Part shown: piece by piece, positions 2,410-58,934 of the stretch
Layout: each line of letters opens with the position of its first letter
How positions within the stretch are numbered: position 1 is the first letter of the stretch
Assembly (NCBI GenBank): GCA_964016885.1
Contig: OZ024740.1
Coordinates: forward strand, 384,648,001-384,712,000
Source: Eledone cirrhosa
Taxonomy: Eukaryota
Length of the DNA stretch: 64,000 bases
Reading direction: 5' to 3'
Notes under the pieces: generated by a model
Databases searched by the model: none
Seen by the model: the letters and a program-made list of their open reading frames with translations, nothing else
Told to the model about the DNA's origin: nothing
Translations under genes and position numbers: made by a program

Positions 2410-2921
2410 GTATTTAAGAAAGCCACAACAATGCAGAGAAAGTGAAAATTGAGAGAGACAAAGATGAAAACAAAACAAAGGTAGAAGGGTTACCGTAGTA
2501 GAGATTTAATCCCAATATTTCGGGCTCACGCCCATCAACGGGGCGCCCATCAGCGGGGGAAAGTTCCAAAAGGGGGGGAACAGGCCAAGCGGAGAAAGTT
2601 GTGATGTCGTTAAGACAGGAATGCTGTCTTAACGACATCACAACTTTCTCCGCTTGGCCTGTTCCCCCCCTTTTGGAACTTTCCCCCGCTGATGGGCGCC
2701 CCGTTGATGGGCGTGAGCCCGAAATATTGGGATTAAATCTCTACTACGGTAACCCTTCTACCTTTGTTTTGTTTACATCTTTGTCTCTCTCAATTTTCAC
2801 TTTCACCTGTTTTTCCTATCTATCTTTCATTTCCTACCTCGAGATTTCCCTCTGCATTGTTGTGGCTTTCTTAAATACGTATTTTACACATTTCACAATG
2901 CTTCAAGCAAACTTTAACACC

Positions 2922-2925
<4 letters not shown>
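2408..2925. mobile_element. Fold-back PLE/retrozyme-type insertion (family I) in (TA)n
   Basis: Arms ~2408-2618 and ~2625-2881 are near-identical inverted copies around a short centre (AAGACAG-GAATG-CTGTCTT). The left arm lacks an internal ~50-nt segment and the right arm has a ~45-nt tail. Degenerate HHR-like TTGAT-GGGC-gtga-GCCC-GAAA-ta-TT at ~2704-2728. Confidence 0.8.
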
Positions 2926-2970
<45 letters not shown>

Positions 2971-2988
2971 GTATATATATAAATACAA

Positions 2989-3060
<72 letters not shown>

Positions 3061-3512
3061 GCAAAAGTTCTATTTAAAATTGTTGGGATACAACAAGTAA
3101 ATATTTTTATAACTGATATAAAGCACTCGACAAGTATTTGGAGTAGATATACGATATTAATAAATGGAAACTATATTTATAAAACCGTATTTATTTCATT
3201 ATACTTATTTCAGGGATACCAAATTAAATTATGGTATGCCTTCATCAGACAAAATACAATATATAACAGTTTTACAAATAAGCTTTGACGTACCGTATTA
3301 AAATGCAACCATTGTTTTTGAAAGTCATCCGGGTGACTTCCAAAAACAATGGTTGCATTTTAATAGGGTACGTCAAAGCTTAATTGTAAAACTGTTATAT
3401 ATTGTATTTTGTCTGATGAAGACATACCATAATTTAATTTGGTATCCCTGAAATATGTATAATGAAATAAATATGGTTTTATAAATATAGTTTCCATTTA
3501 TTAATATCGTAT
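3061..3512. mobile_element. Fold-back HHR element (family B) in (TA)n
   Basis: Inverted arms ~3151-3328 and ~3333-3511 around CATC-CG-GGTG. The left arm has a ~90-nt tail (3061-3150). Confidence 0.9.
3405..3469 (+). ncRNA. Type-I minimal hammerhead ribozyme, family B (other copies 3192-3256 -, 4233-4297 -, 5012-5076 +)
   Basis: Stem I TATTTTGT/ATGAAATA (two GU pairs); core CTGATGA; stem II AGGCATACC..GGTATCCCT; GAAA; near-palindromic stem III ATATGTAT; AUA cleavage triplet. Confidence 0.8.
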
Positions 3513-3640
3513 ATATATGTATATATATGTATATATATATATATATACATATATAAATACAAATATAAATATATATATATATATTTACATATATATTTAT
3601 ATATATATATGTATGTATATATATGTATATATATATACAT

Positions 3641-3671
<31 letters not shown>

Positions 3672-3674
3672 TAA

Positions 3675-3706
<32 letters not shown>

Positions 3707-4123
3707 ATGTATAAATTCGTGTATATTAATGTAATTTTTTAAAAATGGCTTTATACATTCGATGCACGTGTTACCGATGATGTTGATCCTTTCTTCTTCT
3801 CGGGTTATAGTTACTGTCGCTCAGAGAGTGGGATTGGTTCAGTGCACAGTCTTTTCTCACTTTAAAAAAAATCTTCACGCACAGGCATTTTACGATGGAA
3901 TTAATTGATAAATATTAATAATGGTATATTGTGAAATGGCAACACTCGATGACGAGGGGCAGCCCTCATATATATATATATAAAAGAAGTAAGTGACATA
4001 GTCACTACTTTAAAACTGGTAGTGTATGTTCTTCTAAATGCTTTTTATTAAACATACGGCGGTAAATTGCCAAATATACTATACATACATTCATGTATCC
4101 ATCGCTATTTCAGAACACCAATC

Positions 4124-4189
<66 letters not shown>

Positions 4190-4190
<1 letters not shown>

Positions 4191-5208
4191 ACGATATTAA
4201 ATAAATGGAAACCATATTTATAAAACCATATTTATTTCATTATACATATTTCAAGGATACCTTTTTAAATTATGGTATGCCTTCATCAGACAAAATACAA
4301 TATATACCAGTTTTATAAATAAACATTGACGCATCCTTTCAAAATGCGACCGTTAGTTTTGGAAGACATCAGGATAGTGGTTTGTTTATTTTAGTAAGTC
4401 GTTGTGTTAAGGAGAAGGAAAAAGACGGAGAGAGATAAAAGTGGAGAAAAGAAAGGGAGAGATAAATAATGAAAAAGAAAAAAGCAAAAAGAAAAAAAGA
4501 AAACAGAGAAAAACAACAGAGAGATATCAAACCACCAGACAGAGAGAAAAAATCAAGAGAGAGAAATATAGAGATAGAGAGAGGAGGAGAGAACGAAAAC
4601 CTTAAGTCATGTCATATTAAGTTGAGTTAACAATTAAGATGAAATGAATAAATAAAATTAGAAATATTAATATTCATGAATGGAATATACATATATAATA
4701 TGAGAAATTAATCATTGTTTAGTTATGATTAGATATTTAGTTTAAAAATTGAGATCAATATATTAAAAATTGGAATTTAAACATTACGAAATATATATAT
4801 TGCTCGAGAAATTACCTATCATATAGCACGTACATATATGCAAAAATACATAAATATATATATATATACACACACACTCAGAAATTACACACTATATCTA
4901 CTTGCCCATATAAAATAAAATAAACAAACCACTATCCTGATGTCTTCCAAAAGTAACGGTCGCATTTTGAAAGGGTGCGTCAATGTTTATTTATAAAACT
5001 GGTATATATTGTATTTTGTCTGATGAAGGCATACCCTAATTTAAAATGGTACCCTTGAAATATGTATAATGAAATAAATGTGGTTTTATAAATATAGTTT
5101 CCATTTATTAATATCGTATATTTACTCCAAATTCTTGTGGAGTGCTTTATATCAGTTATAAAAATATTTGCTTGTTGTATCCCAACAATTTAAATAGAAC
5201 TTTTGCAT
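4190..5208. mobile_element. Longer fold-back copy of family B with GA-rich spacer
   Basis: Arms ~4190-4392 and ~4917-5120 are inverted. The tail (5120-5208) is on the right arm and matches 3061-3150 in reverse complement. Both ends lie in (TA)n. Confidence 0.9.
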
Positions 5209-5226
5209 ATATATATCTATATATAT

Positions 5227-5410
5227 AACGAAGGAAATGTGGTAAGGAACCAGGTGGACCATAACGCACCAAAGTACTCAATGCTTGAGGTAGTAGAGTG
5301 GGTAATAGGAACCAGTAAGACCCCGACAGCTGAGCTCAAGCCGTTTCGACGGCTAATTCAGAATTAGCCGTCGAAACGGCTTGAGCTCAGCTGTCGGGGT
5401 CTTACTGGTT

Positions 5411-5413
<3 letters not shown>
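5227..5413. mobile_element. Fold-back HHR element (family A) in (TA)n
   Basis: Perfect 52-bp arms 5308-5359 and 5361-5412 with a 1-nt centre, plus an ~80-nt tail 5227-5307. Confidence 0.9.
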
Positions 5414-5469
<56 letters not shown>

Positions 5470-5539
5470 TAATTTGTTAATTTTATTCATGTTTGGCAGA
5501 TGACAGATGATCTTGATGGTATAGATGTTATCAAGGCAT

Positions 5540-6660
5540 TTTCATGTAACTGTGAATTTATGGTTCTTGGAAAATATCTCCTTTTTCATCATCACTTATC
5601 AGCTATCAACAAGAAATGTTTCTGCAATTTTTTCTCTCATTAACAATTGGAAACCAGGGTCACTATTTGTGTTTTATCCATGTTTTGGCGTTCACTACTA
5701 TTTCACCTACTTCCTAATTATACTATAAAAGACCTTGCATAGAATATCTAAAAATGATAATATACCTTCACACCTTACCGAGGATTTTTCCAAGCCTTGG
5801 TTAAAGCTTTAGTTTTCAGTGATTTCCATAAGGACACTAAATTGAATATTGCGAAGTTGAGATTGTAGATCTTGATGTTGCTCAAACGTGTTCATCCCGT
5901 TTGTTTTCCGTAAATCGTATTCTATCACCAAGCGCATTCTTTCCAAATATCTTCTTCCTCTTTAGGCCACAAATATACCTTTAACAATTGGTTGGATGGT
6001 GAAGGAAACACTAAGGAGAATAGATATGCACCAACATTTATTATCTTTACTGAAATGTTGCTGGCCACTTGGGGATTAGATACCTTTTGTAAAACTATTT
6101 GCACCTTCGATTCAGCAGTAGAAAGTTTGTTGAAGTTTTCCTGATATTTGCCCATTCCAGGAATGGATATATGAGAACAATTACTGATTTGATATTTACT
6201 CTTGTAGCTTGAATACTATTTCTTTCAAAATTCACGAACGTACTGAGTTCCCCACATCCATTAACATTAAAATAGAGTTATCGCTTTCGTTCACGCTATA
6301 CAAAACCAAGGTTACAACTATGTTTGGAGGTTTCATTCTTGAAAGCTTGGATATTCGGAATTAGTAACATCCAATACAACACTTCTTCTTTCCAGTTACA
6401 CCCCGCAGTTAATTAAATTATTTAACTTCTATTTGAATTGTTTGCTTTCATCAGTTGGTACGTAGCCTATTTTAGTAAGTTTATTTACATTATGTATTAA
6501 ATAAACTTTTCTAAATCATCATAACTCGATGGACTCTGTTACTACATGATATAATCATAACTGGCCTCTCAAGCTTTTTATCTTGTGATATTTCCGATTA
6601 TGATTCAGGAGTATTTCTTAGAGACTTTTTAATGCCTCTGATGAATTTAATATCTTTGGT
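5540..6660 (-). pseudogene. Possible decayed hAT-type transposase fragment
   Basis: Minus-strand translation near 5820-5880 reads QLRNIQFSVLMEITE, resembling the hAT 'L...FS...DE(S/T)TD' first catalytic Asp region. Many stops; boundaries approximate. Confidence 0.3.
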
Positions 6661-6763
6661 AGGTTTCAGCACCAATGTAGGAGACCCAGAATATACCCCT
6701 CTACAAAACTGATACACCAAGTCAGCAGACGAAAACAACGATAATAATCACGTTCCGAATTGA

Positions 6764-6831
<68 letters not shown>

Positions 6832-6851
6832 ATATATATATATACATACAG

Positions 6852-6896
<45 letters not shown>

Positions 6897-6897
<1 letters not shown>

Positions 6898-7127
6898 TTA
6901 TTAAAATAACAGATTAAAGTTTAAGCAAAGAATCGCTGCTTTCACCCTTAACGAGGTCTTATGAGTTTCAGAAGATACTGTTAAGAGTGAAAGCACCGAT
7001 TCTTTGCTTAAACTTTAATCTGTTATTTTAATAAACATTTGCTCTACGGTTCTTATATATTTGATGTATATTTATCCTTATCGAGCCCTCTTTGGATTTT
7101 AGTCTTCAAATATATTATTATTACTAT
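6897..7127. mobile_element. Fold-back element family F (other copies 16155-16218, 37708-38022, 48484-48575; related segment 30065-30225)
   Basis: TTTATTAAAATAACAGATTAAAGTTTAAGCAAAGAATCG is inverted at ~6997-7035, followed by a ~95-nt tail. HHR-like CAGAAGA-TCCC-gtta-AGGGT-GAAA-gcaTC with a non-canonical U4 position. Confidence 0.75.
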
Positions 7128-7310
7128 CTGTGGATTGGCAGTATCAGTAGAGGGTCGGACGCCATGCTTTGACGCATAGAGTTACGGCCCTTGCCATTCT
7201 GAGTTCAAATCCCGCCGAGGTTAACTTTGATTTTATCCTTACGGGGTCTATAAAATAAAAGTACCAGTAATGCACTGGGTAATTGCTGGCCTTGTTCCCA
7301 AATTAGAAAT
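7128..7310 (+). mobile_element. tRNA-derived SINE (family S1)
   Basis: Pol III A-box-like TGGCAGTATCAG and B box GAGTTCAAATC; central CTTT..TTTCATCCTTACGGGGTCGATAAAATAAAGTACCAG domain; 3' GGCCTTGTGCC..TAGAAAC. Many copies in this window. Confidence 0.85.
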
Positions 7311-7384
7311 TTTATTTTATTTTATATATACATATATACATATTGAATTTGTGCTAGCCCGCCAAATTTTCCACTCGCTCAATA

Positions 7385-8670
7385 CATCTGATGGAGCGCC
7401 TGCTTCGAGTGATAGATGTAGATGTTTCTCTTTTTCGCATCCTATTTTAACAGTTCACTGGGTGGCTAACTGGCAGCATTTACTGGTAAAATATATTCAC
7501 AGCAGGCTCAGTGATGTACGGCAGTTAGTTATCAAAACTGTGAACAAACTAAAGTCGAATTTTTTTTCAACTTGTTTTCCGTCAATTGATAATAATGATT
7601 ATGTGAAGCTTTTATACCATTCTGAAGAACTATGGTTGTCAAAACACGATTGTATTGACCGTTTTGTGAAACAGTTTGATACAATGATACTTCTCTGATT
7701 GCTTCAAAATGTAATACATATTTCCTTACCGTTATATTAGCCAAACCAAAGTATCTCAATACGTAGTTGCGAGAAAAGCCACAAAACGCTTTTCGACTGT
7801 AAATTGTCCACCATAGCCTTCATTTCTAAGTGAATGCTATATAATATGAACATTTGATGACTTCAACTCCACAAATTTCAATGATGGAATATCTTGTAAG
7901 ATGAATTGGCTGATGAATTTTCCATTACATATCGTGATTACGTGCAATCAAGGGATGATGACATGGTACGGCGATTTCAGGATATTATCGTATTACTTGT
8001 TCCAGTTTGGTATACCAACCAGTTTGACGTCCAAGTAATCGATTGTGAAGATGTGCCAAATAATTGATAGATTTACCAAATGTCAACGATGCCTCAATGC
8101 GATAAACATGGGTTTGTGTTATTAGGAAATATAGTGACATCTTATCCTAATCTACGGAAGTACTTAAAGTTGATTTTGCTTGCTCTTTCAACACACTATT
8201 TGATAGAAGCTGGATTCAGCCAAGTTAATACCTTGTTAACTGAAAGAAGAAGTAAACTGGATATAACCATGAGATGTGACATGCAGTTAAAGATTACTAA
8301 TTTTAAACCCTGTGTTTACACTAGCTACATCACAACAGACTCACGAGCCATATTGATGATATATAAAAATGGTATGCGTGTGCCAAAACATTTGAAGTTA
8401 CTACTTTTTACCATACGTTTAATAAAGTATCAGGTAATCCAACATTTGTTCGTAAGTTTGTAAGAGTTAAACATTTGACAGCAGCCAGCTTGATACTGGT
8501 TTGTAATCGGACTTATGATGACAGTAATACATTTTATTATCCGAAAAAGTGCCTATTAGGAAATCTGCCATCTAAGATCTATGATTTGAATAGTTAATAT
8601 ACAGGTGGGCGGTGGATTTTTTTTTTTTCTGAAAGTTGGCAATGATACAAAAATGTTGGGATCCCTTGAT
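7385..8670 (+). pseudogene. Decayed hAT (Buster/Charlie, SCAND3/ZBED-like) transposon, 3' half
   Basis: ORF pieces LLYHSEELWLSKHDCIDRF (cf. LLLHTEVRWLSKG..L.RF) and YPNL..LILLALSTHYLIEAGFS..LLTERRSKLDI..RCDMQL (hAT dimerisation domain). TIR-like end TGTTGGGATCCCTTG at ~8655-8669. Confidence 0.75.
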
Positions 8671-8859
8671 ATAGATGTAGGTAAAAACAAACCGTGGCGA
8701 AACCGTATGAATTGGCGATCGTCTTTTTACCTTGTTATATCAGTGACTCTCCGATCGCTGACGAACGAAGTATAATCAACTTCGGGGAACTAGGTATAGT
8801 AACTTATGCGACACTTTGCTATGCAGTTCTAGTCCTGTACAAGCCATTTCTATATTACA

Positions 8860-9900
<1,041 letters not shown>

Positions 9901-10624
9901 GACATTGCAAAGCAAACAGCTTTCATATATATGAAATAAAGAAATAAAACAAAATGAAACCAGTCCAAGTTGGCTTGCATGTCGGATTTGATGTAAACGA
10001 ATCTATTGTGAGCCCAGCCCTAGTTATGTTCTATGGATACCGCCGTAATCTTAGTAAGTATAATACTTTGAAAGGTGCCATTCAGATTAAGCTTTTACAA
10101 TCGATGGAAACCAATTATCTAATGTAAGTTGAACGACATTAAGTCGACAAGTTAAGAACATGGAGGGGAATCGGTCACATTTGAAATGGTCTGAGAGAAA
10201 TGCCGGGGTTGCACGGGGACGAATAACGTACTGAATTCAAACAATGTAACACATGAATAATGAAGAGAATAGAAGGCCAGCGCTGTTCAAATCCAGCGAC
10301 TAGGTGTTAATTTGATATTTTTGAAAGCTGCTCGGGGTTAAGATAGGGCGAATAACGAGAGAATTGTAGAAGCAGAGGGAAGTGGGAAAAAGAGAAGGAG
10401 GGGTGTGGGATGGTGTGGAAAAGGACACAGGAGAAGAAAAGAAAGATAAATGATGTAGATTGATTGATATTGCGAATAAAAGAGTGAAGAGTGTATTTGA
10501 AATGATAAAAAGGTGGAAAAATAATGAGAACATGATAGACGGTAGGGTAGCGGAGTGAAGAGCTATATATGTATATATACATATACATATACATATATAT
10601 ATATATATGTATATGTATATGTAT

Positions 10625-11714: not shown

Positions 11715-12245
11715 CTACAAAACTTCCTTATAGACTATATTTTGGCTTTTCTCGAGAGTTGCAAAAGCAAATAGGTTATGCCGGCTCCTCACTCGAGAGC
11801 AGCCAACATATAGTTGACCACGGGAGAACCATGGCTCTTCAAAATTAAGCCCTACGACCGTTAGCGTCTGACCCTGTGATCGTTTAATCGACATGGCGAA
11901 ACAGAGGAAATTGCAGCCTTCTGAATGTGAAAGGAATGTCTTTACCGGATGAAATGAGAGGTATCCTTGGTAGGAAGACAGTATCCCCCTTACCACATCC
12001 TGTAAGTATTGTTGCCTCAATAATATGAGGCACCGCCTTTTGGACGACCAGACGCGTGCCGATGGAAAGCCTTCCGGGTTCCAAATTCCTGAGGAGCATG
12101 ACAGGGGCAACTTTCTTAAGTCGGAGTAAATGTGGTTGCAATCCGGGAGGGTCTAGGGCGTTAAGATATTATGTGGGGTAATTAACAACTTCGTCCGCAT
12201 CAGCCATAGAGTCAAGGGACTTGTAGAAGTGCAGGTTTCCAGGCA
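11715..12245 (-). pseudogene. Helitron RepHel PIF1-like helicase C-terminal fragment (frameshifted)
   Basis: PHLLRLKKVAPVMLLRNL..GTRL..IEATILTG..VFLPRIPL..PFTFRRLQFP, then FAMSIKRSQGQTL..GLNFEEPWFSRGQLYVGCSRV..NIVYKEVL*. These are PIF1/Helitron helicase motifs V-VI. Confidence 0.9.
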
Positions 12246-24942: not shown

Positions 24943-26937
24943 TATAAAAGTAATATATATGAGTAATATATATGTTGAAACAGATACCAACATATCTGTA
25001 TTTATATTGCAAAAGAAAGTTAGCCAGACTGAAGAATATTAATTATTATACCACAGTTCGTCCACATCGATTTAAAATAATAATAATAATAAATCGACAA
25101 AAACTAGTTGTGCTGCCAAATGGCAATGATGTTTATACATATTTAAATTTCAAAGTCAAACCTGTTCAGTAGATAAGTTTAAACCTCAAAATCCAAACAT
25201 GTTTCGAGATGGATATAAGTGTAGGAATATCATGCCACTGCTCTCCTCAGTAAACATCCAGAGACAATTGATAAGCTTCACTTCTAAATAATTTAAAAGA
25301 CTGTGTGACGCACATGGGTTCACAGATTCAGGCTAGTCTCATAACCGTACTGCTAGAAATAACAGTCGTATATATGAGGCGAATTTTAGCTCGACGAAGA
25401 GCCGTTATATTAAGTGTAAGGAATTCTTTTACAATGGAATTAGCTCGAAAGGAAATATTCCTGAGCCGTGTATAAAAGTAATATATATGAGTAATATATA
25501 TGTTGAAACAGATACCAACATATCTGTATTTATATTGCAAAAGAAAGTTAGCCAGACTGAAGAATATTAATTATTATACCACAGTTCGTCCACATCGATT
25601 TAAAATAATAATAATAATAAATCGACAAAAACTAGTTGTGCTGCCAAATGGCAATGATGTTTATACATATTTAAATTTCAAAGTCAAACCTGTTCAGTAG
25701 ATAAGTTTAAACCTCAAAATCCAAACATGTTTCGAGATGGATATAAGTGTAGGAATATCATGCCACTGCTCTCCTCAGTAAACATCCAGAGACAATTGAT
25801 AAGCTTCACTTCTAAATAATTTAAAAGACTGTGTGACGCACATGGGTTCACAGATTCAGGCTAGTCTCATAACCGTACTGCTAGAAATAACAGTCGTATA
25901 TATGAGGCGAATTTTAGCTCGACGAAGAGCCGTTATATTAAGTACGGTTATGAGACTAGCCTGAATCTGTGAACCCATGTGCGTCACACAGTCTTTTAAA
26001 TTATTTAGAAGTGAAGCTTATCAATTGTCTCTGGATGTTTACTGAGGAGAGCAGTGGCATGATATTCCTACACTTATATCCATCTCGAAACATGTTTGGA
26101 TTTTGAGGTTTAAACTTATCTACTGAACAGGTTTGACTTTGAAATTTAAATATGTATAAACATCATTGCCATTTGGCAGCACAACTAGTTTTTGTCGATT
26201 TATTATTATTATTATTTTAAATCGATGTGGACGAACTGTGGTATAATAATTAATATTCTTCAGTCTGGCTAACTTTCTTTTGCAATATAAATACAGATAT
26301 GTTGGTATCTGTTTCAACATATATATTACTCATATATATTACTTTTATACACGGCTCAGGAATATTTCCTTTCGAGCTAATTCCATTGTAAAAGAATTCC
26401 TTACACTTAATATAACGGCTCTTCGTCGAGCTAAAATTCGCCTCATATATACGACTGTTATTTCTAGCAGTACGGTTATGAGACTAGCCTGAATCTGTGA
26501 ACCCATGTGCGTCACACAGTCTTTTAAATTATTTAGAAGTGAAGCTTATCAATTGTCTCTGGATGTTTACTGAGGAGAGCAGTGGCATGATATTCCTACA
26601 CTTATATCCATCTCGAAACATGTTTGGATTTTGAGGTTTAAACTTATCTACTGAACAGGTTTGACTTTGAAATTTAAATATGTATAAACATCATTGCCAT
26701 TTGGCAGCACAACTAGTTTTTGTCGATTTATTATTATTATTATTTTAAATCGATGTGGACGAACTGTGGTATAATAATTAATATTCTTCAGTCTGGCTAA
26801 CTTTCTTTTGCAATATAAATACAGATATGTTGGTATCTGTTTCAACATATATATTACTCATATATATTACTTTTATACACGGCTCAGGAATATTTCCTTT
26901 CGAGCTAATTCCATTGTAAAAGAATTCCTTACACTTA

Positions 26938-26939
<2 letters not shown>
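24943..26939. mobile_element. Retrozyme-like family D: 528-bp tandem units arranged as a ~2-kb palindrome
   Basis: Period 528 (24943/25471; ORFs 24972/25500). Inversion junction at 25941-25943 (AGT microhomology) with a ~61-nt spacer. Units look identical by eye; both ends lie in (TA)n. Confidence 0.95.
26036..26102 (+). ncRNA. Hammerhead motif, family D (also 26564-26630 +, 25190-25256 -, 25718-25784 -)
   Basis: CTGAGGA-GAG-ca-GTGG...CCAT-CTC-GAAA-CATG-TT; palindromic ACATGT stem III; GUU site. Stem I GTTTA/TGGAT is wobble-rich. Confidence 0.65.
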
Positions 26940-26984
<45 letters not shown>

Positions 26985-27335: not shown

Positions 27336-28708
27336 TAGTATAAAAGAGAAAACACAGGTAAGCATTAAGAGAAGGATTTTATCTAGGTATTTACGACCGT
27401 TTCATTGGTAAGTGCAACCTTATATTGCTATACTGCAAACAGCAGCCACTCAATTATAATTGTTGTTCACAGTCCAAATTTTCAAAATAGTGAGTAAGTT
27501 ACTCTTGAAATAGTTCTTAATATATAGAGAAAAACATTTTTTTGGAATTGTATTTACTTGTATAGAGAGAGACGAATTAGAAGGTGAGGGGATAAACGGA
27601 ATAGTATAGAGAGAGAGGAAGGGGGAAAAGTAAGGAAGTAGAGTGACAAACTGAGATGGAGGGAGGGGTAGAAGTGGAAGGATTCCTTGATCAGTTTTGA
27701 CATGTAGACTTCAACTCGTGGAATGTAGTGAGTTAAAGAGAATTAAATTGATCATAGTGGGAGGGAGGGATAGAGAGAGAGAGGGAGGGGGAGATATAAA
27801 GAGATAAATATATATATAAAAAATAAAGATAAAGTTAATAATGACACAAATAAAAGCAAAGAAGGGGGAGAAAGAAGAAAAGAAAAGATAGCCAAAATGG
27901 AGAGGGAAGGAAGGAAGAAAACGAAGAAATAGAAGAGGGATGAAGGGGAAGGGAGGGATATAGGTATTGGTTTTTGTGGGTAATTAAAAGGGTTTAGATA
28001 CAACAAGAGAGTATACAGTCTAAGTATATGCAGTTTGTCAGTTGGTAGTAAGAGGTTAATGGTTCGATTTGCACTTGTAGTGTGAAAACTTCTCTTTGAG
28101 TCCATGATTTATATATTTATCTCTTTATATCCCCCCCCCCCTCTCACTCTCTATCCATCAATTTAATTCTCTTTAACTCACTACATTCCACGACATGAAA
28201 TCTACATATTAAAACTGATCAATGAATCCTTCCACCACTACCCCTCCCTCCGTCTCAGTTTGTCACTCTACTTCCTTACTCTCCACCCTTCCGCTCTCTC
28301 TATACTATTCCGTTTGTCCCCTCACCTTCTAATTCCTCTCTCTCTATACTCGTAAATACAATTCCAAAAAAATGTTTTTCTCCATATATTAAGAACTATT
28401 TCAAGAGTAACTTATTCACTATTTTGAAAATTTGGACTGTGAACAACAATTATAATTAAGTGGCTGCTATTTGCAGTATAGCAATATAAGGCTGCACTTA
28501 CCAAGGAAACGGTCGTAAATACCTGGATAAAATCCTTCCCTTAATGCTTACCTGTGCTTTCTCTTTTATACTTTATACTCCAAGATTGAACGGAATCTTA
28601 CAAACTTGTGGAGTTACCCCTAACCGTACGTTGAAATCATCCATGAAACTGACTTTCTTAACCACGAACTGGATCACAATAAGCAATGTTCTGCTTCCCT
28701 AACTATGT
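27336..28708. mobile_element. Fold-back PLE-type element family G
   Basis: Arms ~27336-27800 and ~28115-28572 are inverted and moderately diverged. Right tail ~135 nt; GAAA-CGG-TC at 28506-28514; both ends in (TA)n. Confidence 0.85.
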
Positions 28709-33726: not shown

Positions 33727-35202
33727 TTAGTCGGCGTTGAATCTTCACTGCTAACATGCGGAATTGTTAGTTCTTGTCGGTGCCTTAGGATATATAAAAG
33801 TTACGAAAAGTTCTGAATAGAGACGGAGTGAATCGTTATCTTCGATTAAACAATTAAACACGGCCTGCTATTGGTACTATTTTTCTTTTGTTTTTCATTT
33901 GCATATTCAAACGAATATTATATATAAAATATACACATATGCTCATATATATTTATATTTATATCTATCTAAGACGGAAAATTAAGAATAAGAGGATTGT
34001 ATTTGCGCGTACGCTTTACAAACATACCTATATACATACATAAATACATAAATACATACATACATAAACCATTTGACTGTCGCATCATATCGCTCCCACA
34101 ATATCTACGAAAGAGACATCCATAGAATGAATCTGTTTAGATGTGGTAGATGACATCGTGAGAGTTACGAAAGAGATCCATGACAAACACTCGCGGTGTA
34201 ATAACCAAAGTCTCACAACCATGAATATTGTACACCAATACTGCAACGAAAACAATGGATGAAATACTGCATTCTTATCAACAAAAACTCATTCATATCT
34301 CTGTTGCGAGAAAGTTTCAATCGGTGAGTTATATAGCGAAGCACATTTATCTATCATGGAAGCGCTACATTAGCTCTCCCTTTGAAGGATATAATATTGT
34401 ATTTAAGATAACAACAAAATGACAACAGAAGAGAGAGGTTTGCAGACGCCGGAATAAACATCGAGGATGTTACCTGTAACTTAAGTAGCTGTCCATAAGT
34501 GTCATCACTATAATATCTACCTATGAGGCATGATGCAGTTGCCAAAACACTGTACAATTCATAGAAGGAACTTTCCTGAGAATAAAGATATAAAAAGATA
34601 CAATGACGTGGAAGGTATATACATACATGTCAGACACGAATTTTGATGGAATATTCCAGTCAGAAACAAATACAATACAAATATAACAGACCCGACATAG
34701 TGTGATATTGGACAGAGATAAGAAAGTATTCACAGCAATAGAAATCAGATAAACTATACATGTTAATATAATGGAACGATTAGTGAAAATGAGAACATCT
34801 ATGCTGCAGTAATCAGGAATCTGTCAATACACAACCCTGTGGTTTGGGAGGTTCTTGGATATGTTACATATCTGGAGAAGCTGGGCTTCACAGGACTGGA
34901 AAGAGCAGGGCTAGTTAGGACGCTACAAGTACAGTCCATTAATGGAAATTTAAAACTATGTAAAGTATTTCGGAAATTCACCATGTAACAAGTGCATGTA
35001 CACATGTTTGAATACAATAACATATCCACGTGTACAAATTATTTAAAACATAGAGATGCACGCATCCAATTAAATCCATATCATCATAGACACATTACAT
35101 AGAGACATACATACGTATTTTCCTGGAAAATGCTGTCTAAATTCCAGTGGAAGAATCTCGTTTCTGTGTGAGAAACTCTCTCTATTGGTAAAAATGTATA
35201 AA

Positions 35203-35452
35203 ATAATTGTTTCTACTTTTGGCACAAGGCCAGCAATTATCCCAGTGCATTACTGGTACTTTATTTTATCGACCCCGTAAGGATGAAAGGCAAAGTTAAC
35301 CTCGTCGGGATTTGAACTCGGAATGGCAAGGGCCGTAACTCTGTACGTCAAAGCATGGCGTCCGACCCTCTACCGATACTGCGAATCCACTACCAAAAAT
35401 GCATAAAATAATTGTTTCTACTTTAGGCACAAAGCCAGCAATTACCCAGTAC
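35203..35452 (-). mobile_element. SINE S1, full copy plus a second 3' end
   Basis: Sequence match to the 7128 SINE. Confidence 0.85.
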
Positions 35453-35555
35453 ATTACAAAAGGTATAAAATAATAAAACCAGAACATACATACATGGATG
35501 CAAACATATGCAAAGACTTACATATAGGCATACATGCATATAAATATATATATAG

Positions 35556-35597
35556 CCCGAGCTGAAGATCCTTAAGAGTGAAACAATTGTTCGCGGT
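35556..35597 (+). ncRNA. Degenerate minimal hammerhead motif
   Basis: CCGAG-CTGAAGA-TCCTTAAGAGT-GAAA-CAATTG-TT-CGCGG; palindromic ACAATTGT stem III. Confidence 0.55.
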
Positions 35598-35649
35598 ATG
35601 GTGAACTAACTGTTGTGTTACTACTTCTATATCTATATCTATATATGCA

Positions 35650-35697
<48 letters not shown>

Positions 35698-35700
<3 letters not shown>

Positions 35701-36309
35701 ATCAAGTATGACACCGACGGCAGAGAGCTGAAGCCGTTTCGACGGCTATTTCTGGACTCCAGGAAAATTTCTGTCGGAGTTGACGAAGTAGAGGTTCCAG
35801 TTTTGTCCGAGTGCAGCAAAATGCCGTTAGTGTTTTCATACTCTGTTACTTTGCTAGGGAGTTTTTGTAGGAATCTGTTGTGTCTGGGTTTGAATATAAT
35901 GCTCTTGACCAGTTGGAAAAGGTCGTTCTCGAAGGGTGAGAGCATAGGGTTCGGAAGGAGAGATTTGTAGGTATTAAATCCGAATCTCTCCTTGGTATCG
36001 AAGTCCTGATAGTCGCGGTATCTGTCGTAGAAAAAAGTTCTCCATCTTAGTCTTTTCGCAAAGAGGTCGATTTTTTGCGTGAGCATCCGAAGGTAAAGTT
36101 TTCTCGGTGGAACTGGGATGTCGATGTTGTGTTTTCGCATGGTGCGGGAGAAAATACTTGAACTGGGCGGAAAAGAATATAGCCGTCGAAATGGCTTGAG
36201 CTTTGCCGTCGAGGTCATACTTGTTCCTATTACCCACTCTACTACCCTAAGTATTGAGCACTTTGGTGTGTTATGGTCGATCTGGTTCCTTACCACAATT
36301 CCTTCGTTA
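35698..36309. mobile_element. Family A fold-back copy enclosing a PLE ORF fragment
   Basis: Short arm 35698-35758, long-tail arm 36175-36309, coding spacer between them. Confidence 0.9.
35770..36150 (-). pseudogene. Penelope-like element ORF N-terminus (Nematis-like pre-RT region)
   Basis: IPVPPRKLYLRMLTQKIDLFAKRLRWRTFFY..FGFNT..PFENDLFQLVKSIIF..FLQKL..HSDKTG. A 1-nt frameshift restores DKTGNLYFV, the conserved DK(G/T) motif preceding PLE RT. Confidence 0.75.
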
Positions 36310-37187
36310 TATATATATATACATATATATAATTCAATTAAAATATATATGTTTATATAGAGAATAAACATCCATATATAGTTGGAGGAACACAGTATTT
36401 TAGATATATATATATAAAGCCTAATATACTTTGGAATAACTACGTGCTTTAAGGTGGGAAATTTATATTCTGATACTGTTTCATAGGAACTTTTCCCCTT
36501 AAGGTATGTAGTTTTTCTTAAATATTATATGCTTTATATATATGTACAAATTACCATTTGTTTCTCTAACGATATATGGTTCTTTATCTCTCTCTATATA
36601 TAAATATATCTTTTTTTATTTTAATCATTGATGGTCTGGAAAACTTCCAATGATCTTTTCTACTGAGAAATATAATCATCATACATATTATGTCTATCAA
36701 TATACTACTAAATCTCTGTGACTGTGTGCTTGTCTGTGATTTAATGCACCCTAACGGCGCATAATGGGGTAGTAGGAATTTGCCCCTCAAATGGGAGTAC
36801 AAATGGAATAATAAAAGTTTCGCGTAAATCGGAGTATGGGTTCACGACATACGGTTTTTTTTCACGACATACGGTTTTTTTTCCATAAATAGATAGAAAG
36901 AGATAGTGGTTGGGGGAGAGTAGATTGACAGAGAGACATGGAGATAGACAGAGAAGGAAAATGCAAGAGAGTGAGAGAGAAAGCTGAGGTGTTGTTGAAC
37001 GAAGTTATAACAGGTGACGACAAGAATCAAATAAAGCAATACTTTATCTGGTGACTATATATTAAGTCATATGTATCATATACCTTGCGTTAGGACAATG
37101 TGTGTAGCGAATATTTCTTGGTAAATAGGAAGGGTTTATGTGTGTGTGTGTGTTACCAGTGTATATAGGTCGCAGACACCACCATAA

Positions 37188-38023: not shown

Positions 38024-38089
<66 letters not shown>

Positions 38090-38091
<2 letters not shown>

Positions 38092-39154
38092 CGAAGGAAT
38101 TATCGTAAGAAACTAGATGGACCATAACGCACCAAAGTACTCAATACTTAGGGTAGTAGGATGGGAAATAGGAAAAAGTATGACCCCGACGGCAGAGCTC
38201 AAGCCGTTTCGCGGCTTTTTCTGGACTAAATTAGAATTTTTAGTCTGGTGAATAAATAGCCGAACTTGTCAAGGGGTACTTTCGTATATGGGAATATTGT
38301 ATTTGTCAAGAGGATTGGTTAAAATTTGTTTGTAAACACAAATAAGTCTATCATGGCATTTGGTGGGGGTAGGGGTGGCTGAACTTGCCTGTATAACAAT
38401 GAGGGAGTGATTGGAGCCGGTCAAGCGTTGAAAGTGATATGTATACAGCAGATTCTAAAAATAGTGTATGAAAAGTCGAAAAATTTACCTGTAATTGCAA
38501 GATAGCATTGGCGGAATACGCTTTACTAACTGCTTTTAGCAGCTGTGTTAGACCCTGAAAAGTTTGCTTATATTTTTTCACTACCCACTTCTACATTTTC
38601 TTATTTAGTATTTTCCATTCTCAACTTATTAACCTTTTGTATAGCTTTGGCCGTACAAGCAACACCTACTAATCATAGCAGCTGTTTCTAGACCCTACTG
38701 CTTTTTTTTTTTTTTTTTTTATTCATTTCTCACTATCTAATTTTATATATTTGTTTATATTTCTTTCTAGTATTTTTTATTGTCTCCTACTCTCATTCGA
38801 ATTACCTATTCTATAACTTCCCTCCTCCATTTTCTCCAGAACAATTTTTCGACTTTTCATACACTATCCTTAGAATCTGCTGTATACATATCACTTTCAA
38901 CGCTTGACCGGCTCCACTCACTCCCTCATTGTTCTACAGGTAAGTTCAGCTAACCATACCTCCCACCAAATGCCATGATAGACTTATTTGTGTTTACAAC
39001 AAATGTTGACCAAAAGTCTTGACAACTACAATCTTCCCATATAAGGAAGTACCCCTGACAAATTCGACTATTTATTCACCAGGCTAAACATTCTAATTTA
39101 GTCCAGAAATAGCCGTCAGAACGGCTTGAGCTCTGCCGTCGGAGTCATACCTTT

Positions 39155-39158
<4 letters not shown>
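38090..39158. mobile_element. Longest family A fold-back copy
   Basis: Arms ~38170-38484 and ~38842-39158 are inverted and diverged; tail 38090-38170. Complete HHR at 38183-38277 (-) and ~39051-39145 (+). Confidence 0.9.
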
Positions 39159-42466: not shown

Positions 42467-43229
<763 letters not shown>

Positions 43230-43232
<3 letters not shown>

Positions 43233-43470
43233 CGCTTGATTGGGTCAACTCCACCCCCTCCCCTCTTTCTCCTACTGGCAGGTTTAGCCACCATCTCCCC
43301 TACTAATTTGCAATCACAGAATTACTACTGACTTTTGACAATCACTTTGACCATATATGGAATTACCCCTTGAGAAGATCGGCTATTTAAATACCAGGAT
43401 AAATTTTCATTTAGTCCAGAATTAGCCGTCGAAACGGCTTGAGCTCAGCCGTCGGGGTCTTACTGGTTCC

Positions 43471-55459: not shown

Positions 55460-58295
55460 CAACCTAAAGTCCAACCCCTCCTCAACGTGGCAGGGCGGAG
55501 GCAACGGGAAGTGTCAGAGTTATGCCCTGGGGAACTTCGGTTCCTGGTAGGGCCACCCAAGGCGGATTGGTCTGGCACCCAGCGGTATTAGGGCCGCAAC
55601 CCGGCAAAAGAGGCTCCGGTGAAAATCCAAGAGGTGTCTGCTCCGGTAACCGGCGGCTTCGGGTCGTTTCTGTCTCTGTGTCTGTGGAGAATCTGCGGCA
55701 AACAGGACGTTTTTCCCCCTTGTTCGGGATATACATGCGGGTTTTTTGGGGGACCGCTTGTGAATTCACTACTCCCATGACACTTCTTCCATGAATCCTA
55801 CATATACGAACTATGAAACCAAATTGCCTTCCCGCGACGAACGCAATGCAAAGCAACAGCGCTCCTACCGCTATGGCTCTACAGACTACTCCCGCAGTAG
55901 TCCCGCTCTTCAGACAAAGGAAGGAATTGAGGGTGGCGTGCTGGAACGTCCGAACATTTCGTGACGACGGTGTCCAGGCACTTACAATGAAGGCTCTGCA
56001 CAGGTACTGCGTTCCTGTGCAGGGGACATCTACCACTTGTAACATAGTAGTGTGACTGATAACAGTGGCCTCACGGGATCGCTGTAGCGCTCAGCCCCGA
56101 CTGTAAGCAGCTCTGCTGGCGTGGCAGCCGATCTCCCACCGACTCGCGCTGGTTCGATTGAAGGGTCAAATCTCCAACGTCAGCGTAATTGCCTTCTACG
56201 CTCCCACACTCACGAGGCGGACCTTACGCAGTTCTATGCTGATCTCCAAACAATCGAGGATGGCGTCCGCTCCAGTGATGTTCTCGTTGTCGCTGGGGAC
56301 TGGAAGCGCGGACAGGGCCAGCTGATGATACAACAGGGCATATTCTAGGACGCTTCACCCTAAGCATACGCTGTGACAATGGTGAACGGCTCGTGTCCTT
56401 CGCGGATGCCAATCGTCTTATCGTCACCAACACCCGGTTCCAACATAATCGGCGTCACCTCGTCACGTGGCGATCCAATGACAGAAGAACGGCCAATCAG
56501 ATTGCCTACATCCTGGTCAGATCTCGTTGGGCGATTTCAGTGATGGACTCGCGTGCGTATCGTGGGGCTAATACGGGCAGTCAGCATGGGTCAGACCATA
56601 CTCTTGTTCGAGCAACCCTTCGTCTGCGGCTGCGGGCGAAACCTCCTCCCAACCGCCAGAAAAGGATCGATATCTCGCGACTCAAGCTCGATGCTGGAAA
56701 TGCTTTCCGGCTAGACTGTGAAACCGATTCCAAATGCTGAGTAACGAAATGGAATAGCAACCGGAGCAGGAGTGGAACGCGCGCTGGGCGGCGACGGTTG
56801 GGCAGGGAGTATCTCGGGTCGCCCCGAAGACGCCATCGGGACTGGATCTCCGGCGGCACACTTGAACTCGCGGAGAGGGCGAGAGTCGCCCGACTCGAGG
56901 GTGCACTTAGTCTTTGAGATATCCGACGTCGCACATCTCGCGCTATTCGGGCAAATCGGAATGCACACTGGCGCGAGTTTGCGGAGCAGACGGAGAGTGC
57001 AGCAGCCTGTGGTGACTCGCGCAAGGTCTACCAACTGGTGAAGCGGGTCAGCCGAAGCAGTACGGGTATCAGCGAGACTATCCGTGATCGGAACGGGGCG
57101 GTCATTACCAATCTTAATGACCGGCTAGTCCGATGGTGGGACCATTTCTCCGAAATGTTCAACCACCCGTCACCATCCACGCCAACCTACTTGCAGCCTT
57201 CCAGAGAAGAATACGGGTGCAGCACTGCCCCTCCAACGGTCGAGGAGGTACATGGTGTCCTGACACATCTCCAGAACAAAAAGGCGCCGGGCGAGGATGG
57301 CGTTCCAGTTGAGGTCTACAAGGCCGAGACTGATGTCTTCGCAGCTTGGCTCCATCAAGTCTTCTGCTGAAGAGGTTCCAGGAGAAGGGAGAAGGGAGAA
57401 GGGTCGTGGTGACGGACCTGACCTACGTGGATGACATCGTGCTGATGGGCCCTAACGGGACAGATGTACAAGGTGCTCTCGAAAGGGTGCACACTGCAGC
57501 CGCCGCTGTTGGTCTACGAATCAATGCCACCAAGTCGAAAGACATGACGTCACTGGTCACGCCTGATGCCTGGCAGCCGATATCTCTTGAGGGCGTGGGC
57601 CTGGAGGATGTGGAGTCCTTCATTTACCTGGGCTCAACAGTGGTTCCAACGGGACAGGGCGCAGCCGAGGACAAGCGTCGCATAGGTGCTGCCATATCCG
57701 CTTTCGGGCGCCTCCAGCGGTGTCTGTGGGACAGAAGAGGGATCACCTCGGCGATCAAAGGGCGTATCTACCAGGCCGTCGTTCACACTATCCTCCTCTA
57801 TGGCTCTGAAACATGGCCTATGAGGGTAGTCGATTAACGAGGGCTGGAGGTCTTCGACAATAACTGTCTTCGCCGCATTCTTCGCTGCCGACGCGTTGAT
57901 TGGGTACCTACCACCAGTATTCGTCTTCGCCTGAATCTTCGACCCCTTCTTTCAGTGCTTCTGCAACGGCGCTTGAGATGGTTTGGTCACGCAGCCCGGC
58001 GCCCTGAGGGTGAGCTGATCCGCGATGTTCTCCTCCCACCTCCACTCCCTATTGGCGCAAGCGCGTTGGCGGGCAGCTGAAGACCTGGGCAACGACGATC
58101 AAGGAGGACCTCTCCGAACTCTCAGGTCCGCAAGTGGTCGGCCTGCGCCATGGAACCGTGACTGGCTCGCTATCTCCAGTGACCTAGCTCGGGACTGTCG
58201 TGCGTGGGCTGCCATGGTTCGGGATGCCGTCAGGACAAGGGAAGAAGCCGGATCAACCCGTCCAGGGTGAATGTCGACACAAGTAAGTAAGTAGT
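55460..58295 (+). mobile_element. RTE-clade LINE with 14-bp TSD and internal deletions
   Basis: TSD ACTTTCAGTATGTC at 55446-55459 and 58296-58309; (AAGT)n tail; GC-rich body against an AT-rich background. Confidence 0.92.
55813..58270 (+). pseudogene. APE endonuclease + reverse transcriptase, disrupted
   Basis: APE: LRVACWNVRT, YAPT, VVAGDW, TW.SND..NQI.YILV, GSDH.LV. RT: KAPGEDG, DLTYVDDIVL, F.YLGS, LLYGSETW, RRLRWFGH. The central RT region between KAPG and YVDD is deleted near 57365. Confidence 0.9.
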
Positions 58296-58934
58296 ACTTT
58301 CAGTATGTCAGGTATGCATCTGCATGTGTCCGTCAATTTTCGAATATTTTAAATCATACCTAGATGTTTGTTTTGTTGCAATTGAATGAGGATTAGCTGA
58401 GTTAGTATTTGTAGTGTTGGTATTACTACTAGGCATGTTGGTGTATGGTGATGTTGTTATTGCTGTTTCGTGGTTTGAAGCCAACGTGGATTCCCCTCAA
58501 TTTGATGAATGTTTTTTTAAGACAAAGAATTTTTTTTCGGCAAAGATGATTGTTTCATTGTCAATTTCCGCCTTCTCTCATTCATCATCTACACTATCTT
58601 CTTCTCCCGATGCCCAAAACGACGCCATTGTCTGTGTTTGTGTGTCTTTTTGAATATGCTTTGGCAAAACAAATGTTTTAGTGGAGATGGCCCCAATGTG
58701 ACTTGAAACAAAGAAACAGATAGTCGCTATCAGTCTCGGTCGATTCTGCAACCAAATAAGAATATAATAACAACAAATAGCCCAAAGGGCAAACAACAAG
58801 AATTATTCTCAAACTGATAAAACGAAAGGAAACACGTCAGGATAAGTCAGCAGTGGAAACTAATAACTGGAGCAATATTAGTTATTATTACTCGAAAAAG
58901 AAACTATTTTTGTTGTTTTTTTCTGCGATTGGCA

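Follow-up and report, generated by a model that had tools for sequence, protein, structure and literature searches.

Background

Most components of the locus described here have counterparts that are already described, namely Hydra elements, inverted pLTRs and their tails, U3-A8 hammerheads and PLE-derived non-coding repeats. The Hydra clade of PLEs is defined by the motifs RWK, DKT and CxCX5C, a canonical hammerhead and (TA)n targets, its CxCX5C linker being accompanied by a C-terminal GIY-YIG without CCHH, whereas Nematis and other canonical PLE clades carry DKG (Craig et al. 2021, PMC8557442). For a Poseidon PLE, in vitro work has demonstrated cleavage of the two strands of an AT-rich target and initiation of reverse transcription at a pair of internal sites, between which the tail lies (Frangieh et al. 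2024, PMC11167929). Covariation of U3-A8 in the hammerhead core is known from Cercyon PLEs of Schistosoma mansoni (Cervera and de la Peña 2014, PMC4209133). No tested mechanism for the Hydra clade was found in the literature surveyed.

Architecture of the locus

The locus lies in a window of 64,000 nucleotides, the whole stretch of DNA analysed, and is inserted in a (TA)n target with its left flank at 35651..35698 and its right flank at 36308..36331. Between these flanks, two inverted copies of one repeat, termed family A (35699-~35770 and 36176-36309, 44/52 aligned bases equal), enclose the ORF fragment, the minus strand forming a single open frame across arms and insert (36311→35700), in agreement with the preliminary description, which had proposed a PLE ORF N-terminus between family A arms, in the sense of the left arm and fused to the 3′ half of a hammerhead. 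All three points hold on the sequence, and the fusion is real.

The short arm (35699..35770, minus strand) corresponds by sequence comparison to the 3′ end of family A and holds the 3′ half of the hammerhead, that is, the end of stem II, GAAA, stem III, the cleavage C and the 3′ strand of stem I, stopping at the first TA site. Its match to family A is secure up to 35758 and probable up to 35770, and the junction between ORF and left arm is placed no finer than 35758-35772. The predicted N-terminus of a Hydra-clade PLE ORF follows (35771..36140, minus strand; ATG at 36140, with IPVP, RWR, FGF, FENDL and DKTG), together with 35 nt of the 5′ UTR of the ORF's Hydra family (36141..36175, minus strand), as delimited by aligned contigs from other copies. 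With this UTR included, the insert between the arms measures ~405 nt (36175→~35771), refining the ~380 nt given earlier. The right junction falls at 36175/36176, where 2 nt are compatible with either side.

The long arm, on the plus strand and thus inverted relative to the ORF, consists of the family A hammerhead 3′ half (36176..36227) and an 80-nt tail extension (36228..36307) that reaches the second TA site. Within this tail lies a Hydra-type hairpin (36236..36262, plus strand; covariance model E 2e-4), the family A form of which is ACTC…GAGT-ACT; the window copy has GAGC, with T at 36259 in other copies. Just left of the locus, a fragment of a different hammerhead with canonical core (35555-35630, plus strand) shares the (TA)n run. 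An abundant SINE-like repeat of ~190 nt, which we take to be of a type typical of octopus genomes, occurs at 35190-35457 and at many other positions in the window.

Family A and its hammerhead

The arm repeat recurs in 7 other blocks of the 64-kb window, and the 8 blocks are dispersed, 7 of them being fold-backs in which one arm stops 35 nt past GAAAC and the other extends 80 nt further. The longest fold-back (38089..39157, plus strand), with 320-bp arms, and the copy at 43231-43470 each contain the complete hammerhead, at 38183..38277 (minus strand) and 43365..43457 (plus strand, predicted three-way junction), respectively. By its core boxes and three stems, present in both of these copies, it is a type I hammerhead with a UUGA(C/G)AA core of U3:A8 type, a long stem II and a 5-bp stem III. 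Folding z-scores of the family A hammerheads are -0.7 and -2.0, and an Rfam scan did not report the motif at E≤0.1. Assignment of family A to the tandem (non-LTR) retrozymes was rejected, as its copies in the window are dispersed and mostly fold-backs, not head-to-tail hammerhead units. A family A 22-mer was absent from 79 loci and from GTDB genomes, and a 20-mer was absent from viral contigs.

Several other repeats accompany family A in the window. At least 7 further type I hammerhead families occur, several of them in fold-backs (+1571; +3413/-3248/-4289/+5020; +19059/-29026/+49197; -37450; -42148; -44284; +28424/-27485), with the U3:A8 core recurring in the pair at 27485/28424. At 24943-26942 lies a nest of inverted and direct repeats that are nearly perfect (937-nt arms, 100%); it is either an artefact of the assembly or a fold-back of very recent origin. 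At 42716-43470 (plus strand), a C-terminal piece of 515 nt (42716-43230), presumably LINE-like (the ESM Atlas lead being weak), directly precedes the family A 3′ end at 43231-43470 in one (TA)n-bounded block, a possible second chimera.

Affiliation of the ORF fragment

From the ATG at 36140 the frame encodes 116 residues, starting M-R-K-H-N-I-D-IPVPPRK and passing through KRLRWRTFF, FGF and FENDL to HSDKTG. The peptide had been correctly read up to DKTG; the NLY given after it in parentheses belongs to NLYFVN in the next frame, reached by a 1-nt shift (frameshift near 35794). A phmmer search of the peptide against 1.84 billion representatives recovered 519 proteins at E≤1e-3, the best at 4.6e-17 with 40% identity, and a profile built from 107 full-length relatives matched it at E 9e-26, far below the best of 1000 shuffles (0.48), which together argue that the match is not due to chance. 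Word-indexed protein searches with the peptide gave no match, and Pfam and ESM Atlas gave no informative one.

Motifs were counted at aligned sites in the best 150 of the 519 phmmer matches. RWK or RWR occupies the aligned site in 125/149 among the matches listed, the window peptide having RWR, and the third DKx residue in the 109 aligned matches listed gives DKT in 84, DKS in 18 and DKG in none, the window peptide having DKT. The 107 full-length relatives, 690-760 aa long and mostly gathered with the best phmmer match as query, have YRDD in all cases, CxCx5C in 98 and CX2-5CxxC at residues 500-620 in none; this linker lies outside the window fragment, and the relatives so scored are only 30-40% identical to the peptide. 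The Pfam GIY-YIG domain was below cut-off in 1/11 relatives. In an N-terminal tree without outgroup, the window peptide forms a long branch beside P0003 (56/93). Insertion into (TA)n is observed, yet it is common to Naiad and other clades and hence not diagnostic for Hydra.

RWR and DKT in the peptide identify the fragment, at the level of sequence, as a Hydra-clade PLE; CxCx5C is a feature of its full-length relatives. The earlier assignment to the pre-RT region of a canonical PLE, with C-terminal endonuclease, stands, whereas the likeness to Nematis does not: DKG is missing from the peptide and from all 109 aligned matches, and CX2-5CxxC from all 107 relatives. Naiad is ruled out by the motifs. 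A host gene is equally ruled out, the homologs of the peptide being RT-endonuclease ORFs.

Neither a tblastn search of the window with 20 long relatives nor the profile revealed any further Hydra RT or endonuclease piece, save a weak remnant at 1382-1275. This weak PLE endonuclease C-terminal remnant (minus strand, E 0.026) sits within 1275-1472 beside a plus-strand Hydra-type hairpin (E 6e-4). Pfam searches of 149/163 filtered frames plus one extra reported only an RT (57334-57834), a Pif1 domain and a DUF. The RT, LINE-like by its frames, belongs to a decayed LINE at ~55800-58300 (plus strand; endonuclease-like and RT frames, RVT_1 E 6e-7), which is presumably RTE-like, and the Pif1 2B domain fragment (11887-12168, minus strand, E 9e-10) is likely a Helitron remnant.

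Other copies of the ORF family

Further copies were sought in three contig sets from one sample and in one RAD run, aligned to 35698-36700 at 80% likeness; the animal sampled is apparently conspecific. The ORF is covered by many contigs that are ~80-95% alike in the three sets, and it belongs to a multicopy family. Summed contig depth, which does not equal copy number, was 2,500-10,000 for the ORF, 1-2 million for the arms and ~8-10 for a flank contig.

Other copies carry an extra base at 35794/5 (939/971 of contig depth in X1, 11/20 raw reads in X5). At 36119-36121 they are longer by 15 bases, which corresponds to an in-frame 15-nt deletion in the window copy. By this deletion and the 1-nt frameshift the window copy is a decayed one. 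The exact window copy was not seen in the sample, though the flank at 36365-36543 matches it 100% over 179 nt, and no contig or read among those listed for the sample and the RAD run spans the junction between ORF and left arm. Many of the joints among those listed are plain family A fold-backs without the ORF, with varied turn points.

Among the loose ends listed for the one sample, 3-4 contigs per run show the other copies running on beyond 36175 into sequence other than family A (a further 773 loose ends and 154 joints lie outside the listing), and the loose ends upstream of this position agree at 0.96-1.0. Together, the 35 nt in the window and 30 from the loose ends give 65 nt of known sequence upstream of the ATG, in which the end of the family A tail does not occur; reads are cut near 36297-36364, where a joint between tail and UTR would fall. 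The covariance model described below finds no second hairpin before the ATG of the window ORF at E≤10. A full-length copy or 3′ end of the ORF family was not recovered from the sample's contigs and the RAD run, and the exact mobiliser is for this reason unproven.

Twin hairpins in intact Hydra loci

The ends of intact elements were studied in 78 Hydra loci from metagenome contigs (L002-L079), representing the best 80 of 304 stretches. A structural scan placed a hammerhead 3′ of the ORF in 38/62 loci, 37 of them C3:G8 and one U3:A8, and the ORF ends within 328 nt of the hammerhead in 50/51. The motif GCTC…GAGCACT occurs upstream of the ORF in 51/60 loci and downstream in 27/46, with 0/168 control windows within ORFs and 2/46 in antisense. 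Two hairpin copies, 33-56 nt apart, are present in 29/55 Hydra 5′ UTRs, and the second starts 35-62 nt before the ATG in 45/46 loci and ends 13-41 nt before it. Covariation is seen in the inner pairs, with 9 cells in which the two sides have both changed (0/500 shuffles), a figure inflated by related loci. Pattern scans for the hairpin gave 41 matches in prokaryotic and 8 in viral contigs, by estimate the chance level.

The position of the hairpins relates to that of the insertion ends, for the ends in (TA)n fall directly ahead of hairpin 1 in 7 loci, and in 4 they fall 29-34 nt past it. The tail equals the start of the 5′ UTR (≥85%) in 5/6 loci with two separate copies, and in 8 more Hydra loci hammerhead, tail and ATG are contiguous. 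No description of twin hairpins was found in the literature searched, a scope that does not extend to Repbase reports, subscription papers and supplement figures, and the word hairpin is absent from the main text of Craig et al. 2021 (PMC8557442).

Family A shows the same order of parts: hammerhead, TA site, hairpin, 45 nt and second TA site. The distance from GAAAC to the hairpin is 43 nt in family A and 44-77 in the loci (n=28), and the short end measures 35 nt against 40-58 (n=7); the long end of family A lies 45 nt past the hairpin, and in the loci the distance from there to hairpin 2 is 33-56 nt (n=29). All 75/75 paired hairpins of Hydra 5′ UTRs close with GCTC/GAGC (G-C), whereas that of family A closes with A-U. 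A covariance model built from 23 first hairpins of metagenomic Hydra loci, and thus made independently of family A, placed all 7 of 7 family A tails among its top 9 matches in the window (E 2e-4 to 0.15, rough values), and on this ground family A is taken to be a Hydra-type end, unless the hairpin is common to other clades such as Neptune, Nematis or Poseidon. A loose regular expression for the hairpin gave 4 matches in the window against 3.1 expected, which is no enrichment by count; only position and covariance model carry weight.

Origin of the insertion

The locus is best explained, with a probability of roughly 0.55, as one dead insertion in (TA)n that would have acquired the start of a Hydra gene when the RT switched templates, leaving family A RNA. 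By analogy with the Poseidon PLE (PMC11167929), a Hydra RT-endonuclease would cut (TA)n and prime cDNA at both ends, the short arm arising from priming at the site before hairpin 1 and the tailed arm from priming at the expected start of hairpin 2. The short-arm cDNA would copy ~70 nt of family A RNA and then jump to the mRNA of a different Hydra family, of which ~405 nt would be copied to a point 35 nt before the ATG, and the extended cDNA would be joined to the cDNA of the other end over 2 shared bases. A template switch had been among the options of the preliminary description and survives as a candidate, the switch being best read as leading to the mRNA of another Hydra family.

The other option raised there, that family A is the 3′ end (pLTR) of this very Hydra family and the locus a near full-length copy from which ~2 kb with RT and endonuclease went missing, either in a jump within the molecule or through deletion at a later time, is disfavoured and considered unlikely. 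It would account well for Hydra-type arms around a Hydra cargo that has the same sense and begins near a 5′ end, and heavy 5′ truncation predicts the excess of arm over ORF-start depth (contig figures, not copy numbers); a weak A-U-closed hairpin candidate, found by eye, also has its start precisely on the right junction, 36 nt ahead of the ATG. If family A were the ORF's own end, however, the end of its tail would be expected within ~70 nt of the ATG, and the 65 nt known there lack it, the other copies continuing with different sequence; likewise, in the longest family A copy (38089-39157) the stretch of up to 570 nt that precedes the hammerhead holds no remnant of a Hydra ORF, whereas the ORF ends within 328 nt in 50/51 intact loci. 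Because of this different 5′ UTR, family A is probably not the ORF's own end, as judged from the aligned copies.

That the Hydra piece has nothing to do with the mobiliser and was acquired when the RT switched to nearby RNA or DNA, or through later recombination between repeats, appears improbable. Hydra sequence is present in only 1/7 tailed family A fold-backs of the window, and the LINE-like piece that abuts another family A copy indicates that cargo need not name the enzyme; nevertheless, the cargo is of the very clade to which the layout of the arms points, and, compared with family A, starts of Hydra ORFs are rare. An assembly chimera between repeat copies is very improbable, for although the left junction is unspanned among the listed records and no S1 contig has the window's letter at 35820, 35824, 36011 or 36149 despite the matching flank, both ends are the same as in six other fold-backs, private decay runs throughout arms and ORF, and contigs lose rare repeat variants.

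Under the template-switch reading, a fold-back with Hydra cargo suggests that a Hydra-type enzyme spreads the abundant family A repeat. The mobiliser is very probably an enzyme of the Hydra clade, and the chance that it is the ORF family's own enzyme is somewhat short of even. The earlier statement that either option points to the likely mobilising enzyme was too strong, as the arms independently point to the Hydra clade and not to the ORF family. More tentatively, and with doubt prevailing, twin hairpins of the form GCTC…GAGCACT may serve Hydra PLEs as marks of two RT start sites; family A may be a very abundant non-coding parasite with a compensatory A-U hairpin and a U3:A8 hammerhead, and the chimera may record family A RNA sharing a particle with the mRNA of the host enzyme.

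The locus itself is a dead transposon fragment of an ordinary class, through which a fold-back repeat of high abundance, equipped with a hammerhead, is connected with a clade, Hydra, that has received little study. Most worth following is the twin hairpin: doubled in Hydra 5′ UTRs, where insertions end directly ahead of one copy or the other, it is a testable candidate for what fixes two RT start sites and the PLE tail in this clade.

Comparison with known systems

The described Hydra-clade PLEs (Hydra-1_Obim, Hydra-2_Amil and Hydra-1/2_Ajap; PMC8557442) share with the locus RW[K/R], DKT, (TA)n and a type I hammerhead near the 3′ end. The window locus differs in the absence of RT and endonuclease, and family A in its U3:A8 core, 5-bp stem III, long stem II and A-U-closed hairpin. 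The Hydra-2_Amil consensus ends in the same hairpin as family A, and a 12-mer of the window tail, chosen after this was seen, occurs once in the 584,131 characters of the Craig et al. 2021 supplement, in Hydra-2_Amil. Hydra-1_Obim is a homolog from a different family, about one third identical by eye, with a canonical C3:G8 hammerhead. Nematis PLEs resemble the Hydra clade in the C-terminal endonuclease and a related linker, but differ by DKG and CX2-5CxxC.

The inverted-pLTR insertions of PLEs (Craig et al. 2021, legend of figure 2; PMC11167929) likewise have a truncated inverted copy at one end, a tail on one arm and an AT-rich target. Their tails measure 30-40 nt and that of the present locus 80 nt, and the sense arm of the locus carries sequence that is likely from another family. 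Cercyon shows the same core covariation as family A and, in addition, opposite-strand pairs 100-700 bp apart; its hammerheads are described among the minimal ones (PMC4209133), whereas family A has a stable stem III and a predicted monomer fold. Finally, the non-LTR retrozymes (bioRxiv 10.64898/2026.07.22.740005) are, like family A, non-coding, PLE-derived and equipped with a type I hammerhead, but they form head-to-tail tandems, whereas the family A copies of the window are dispersed fold-backs.
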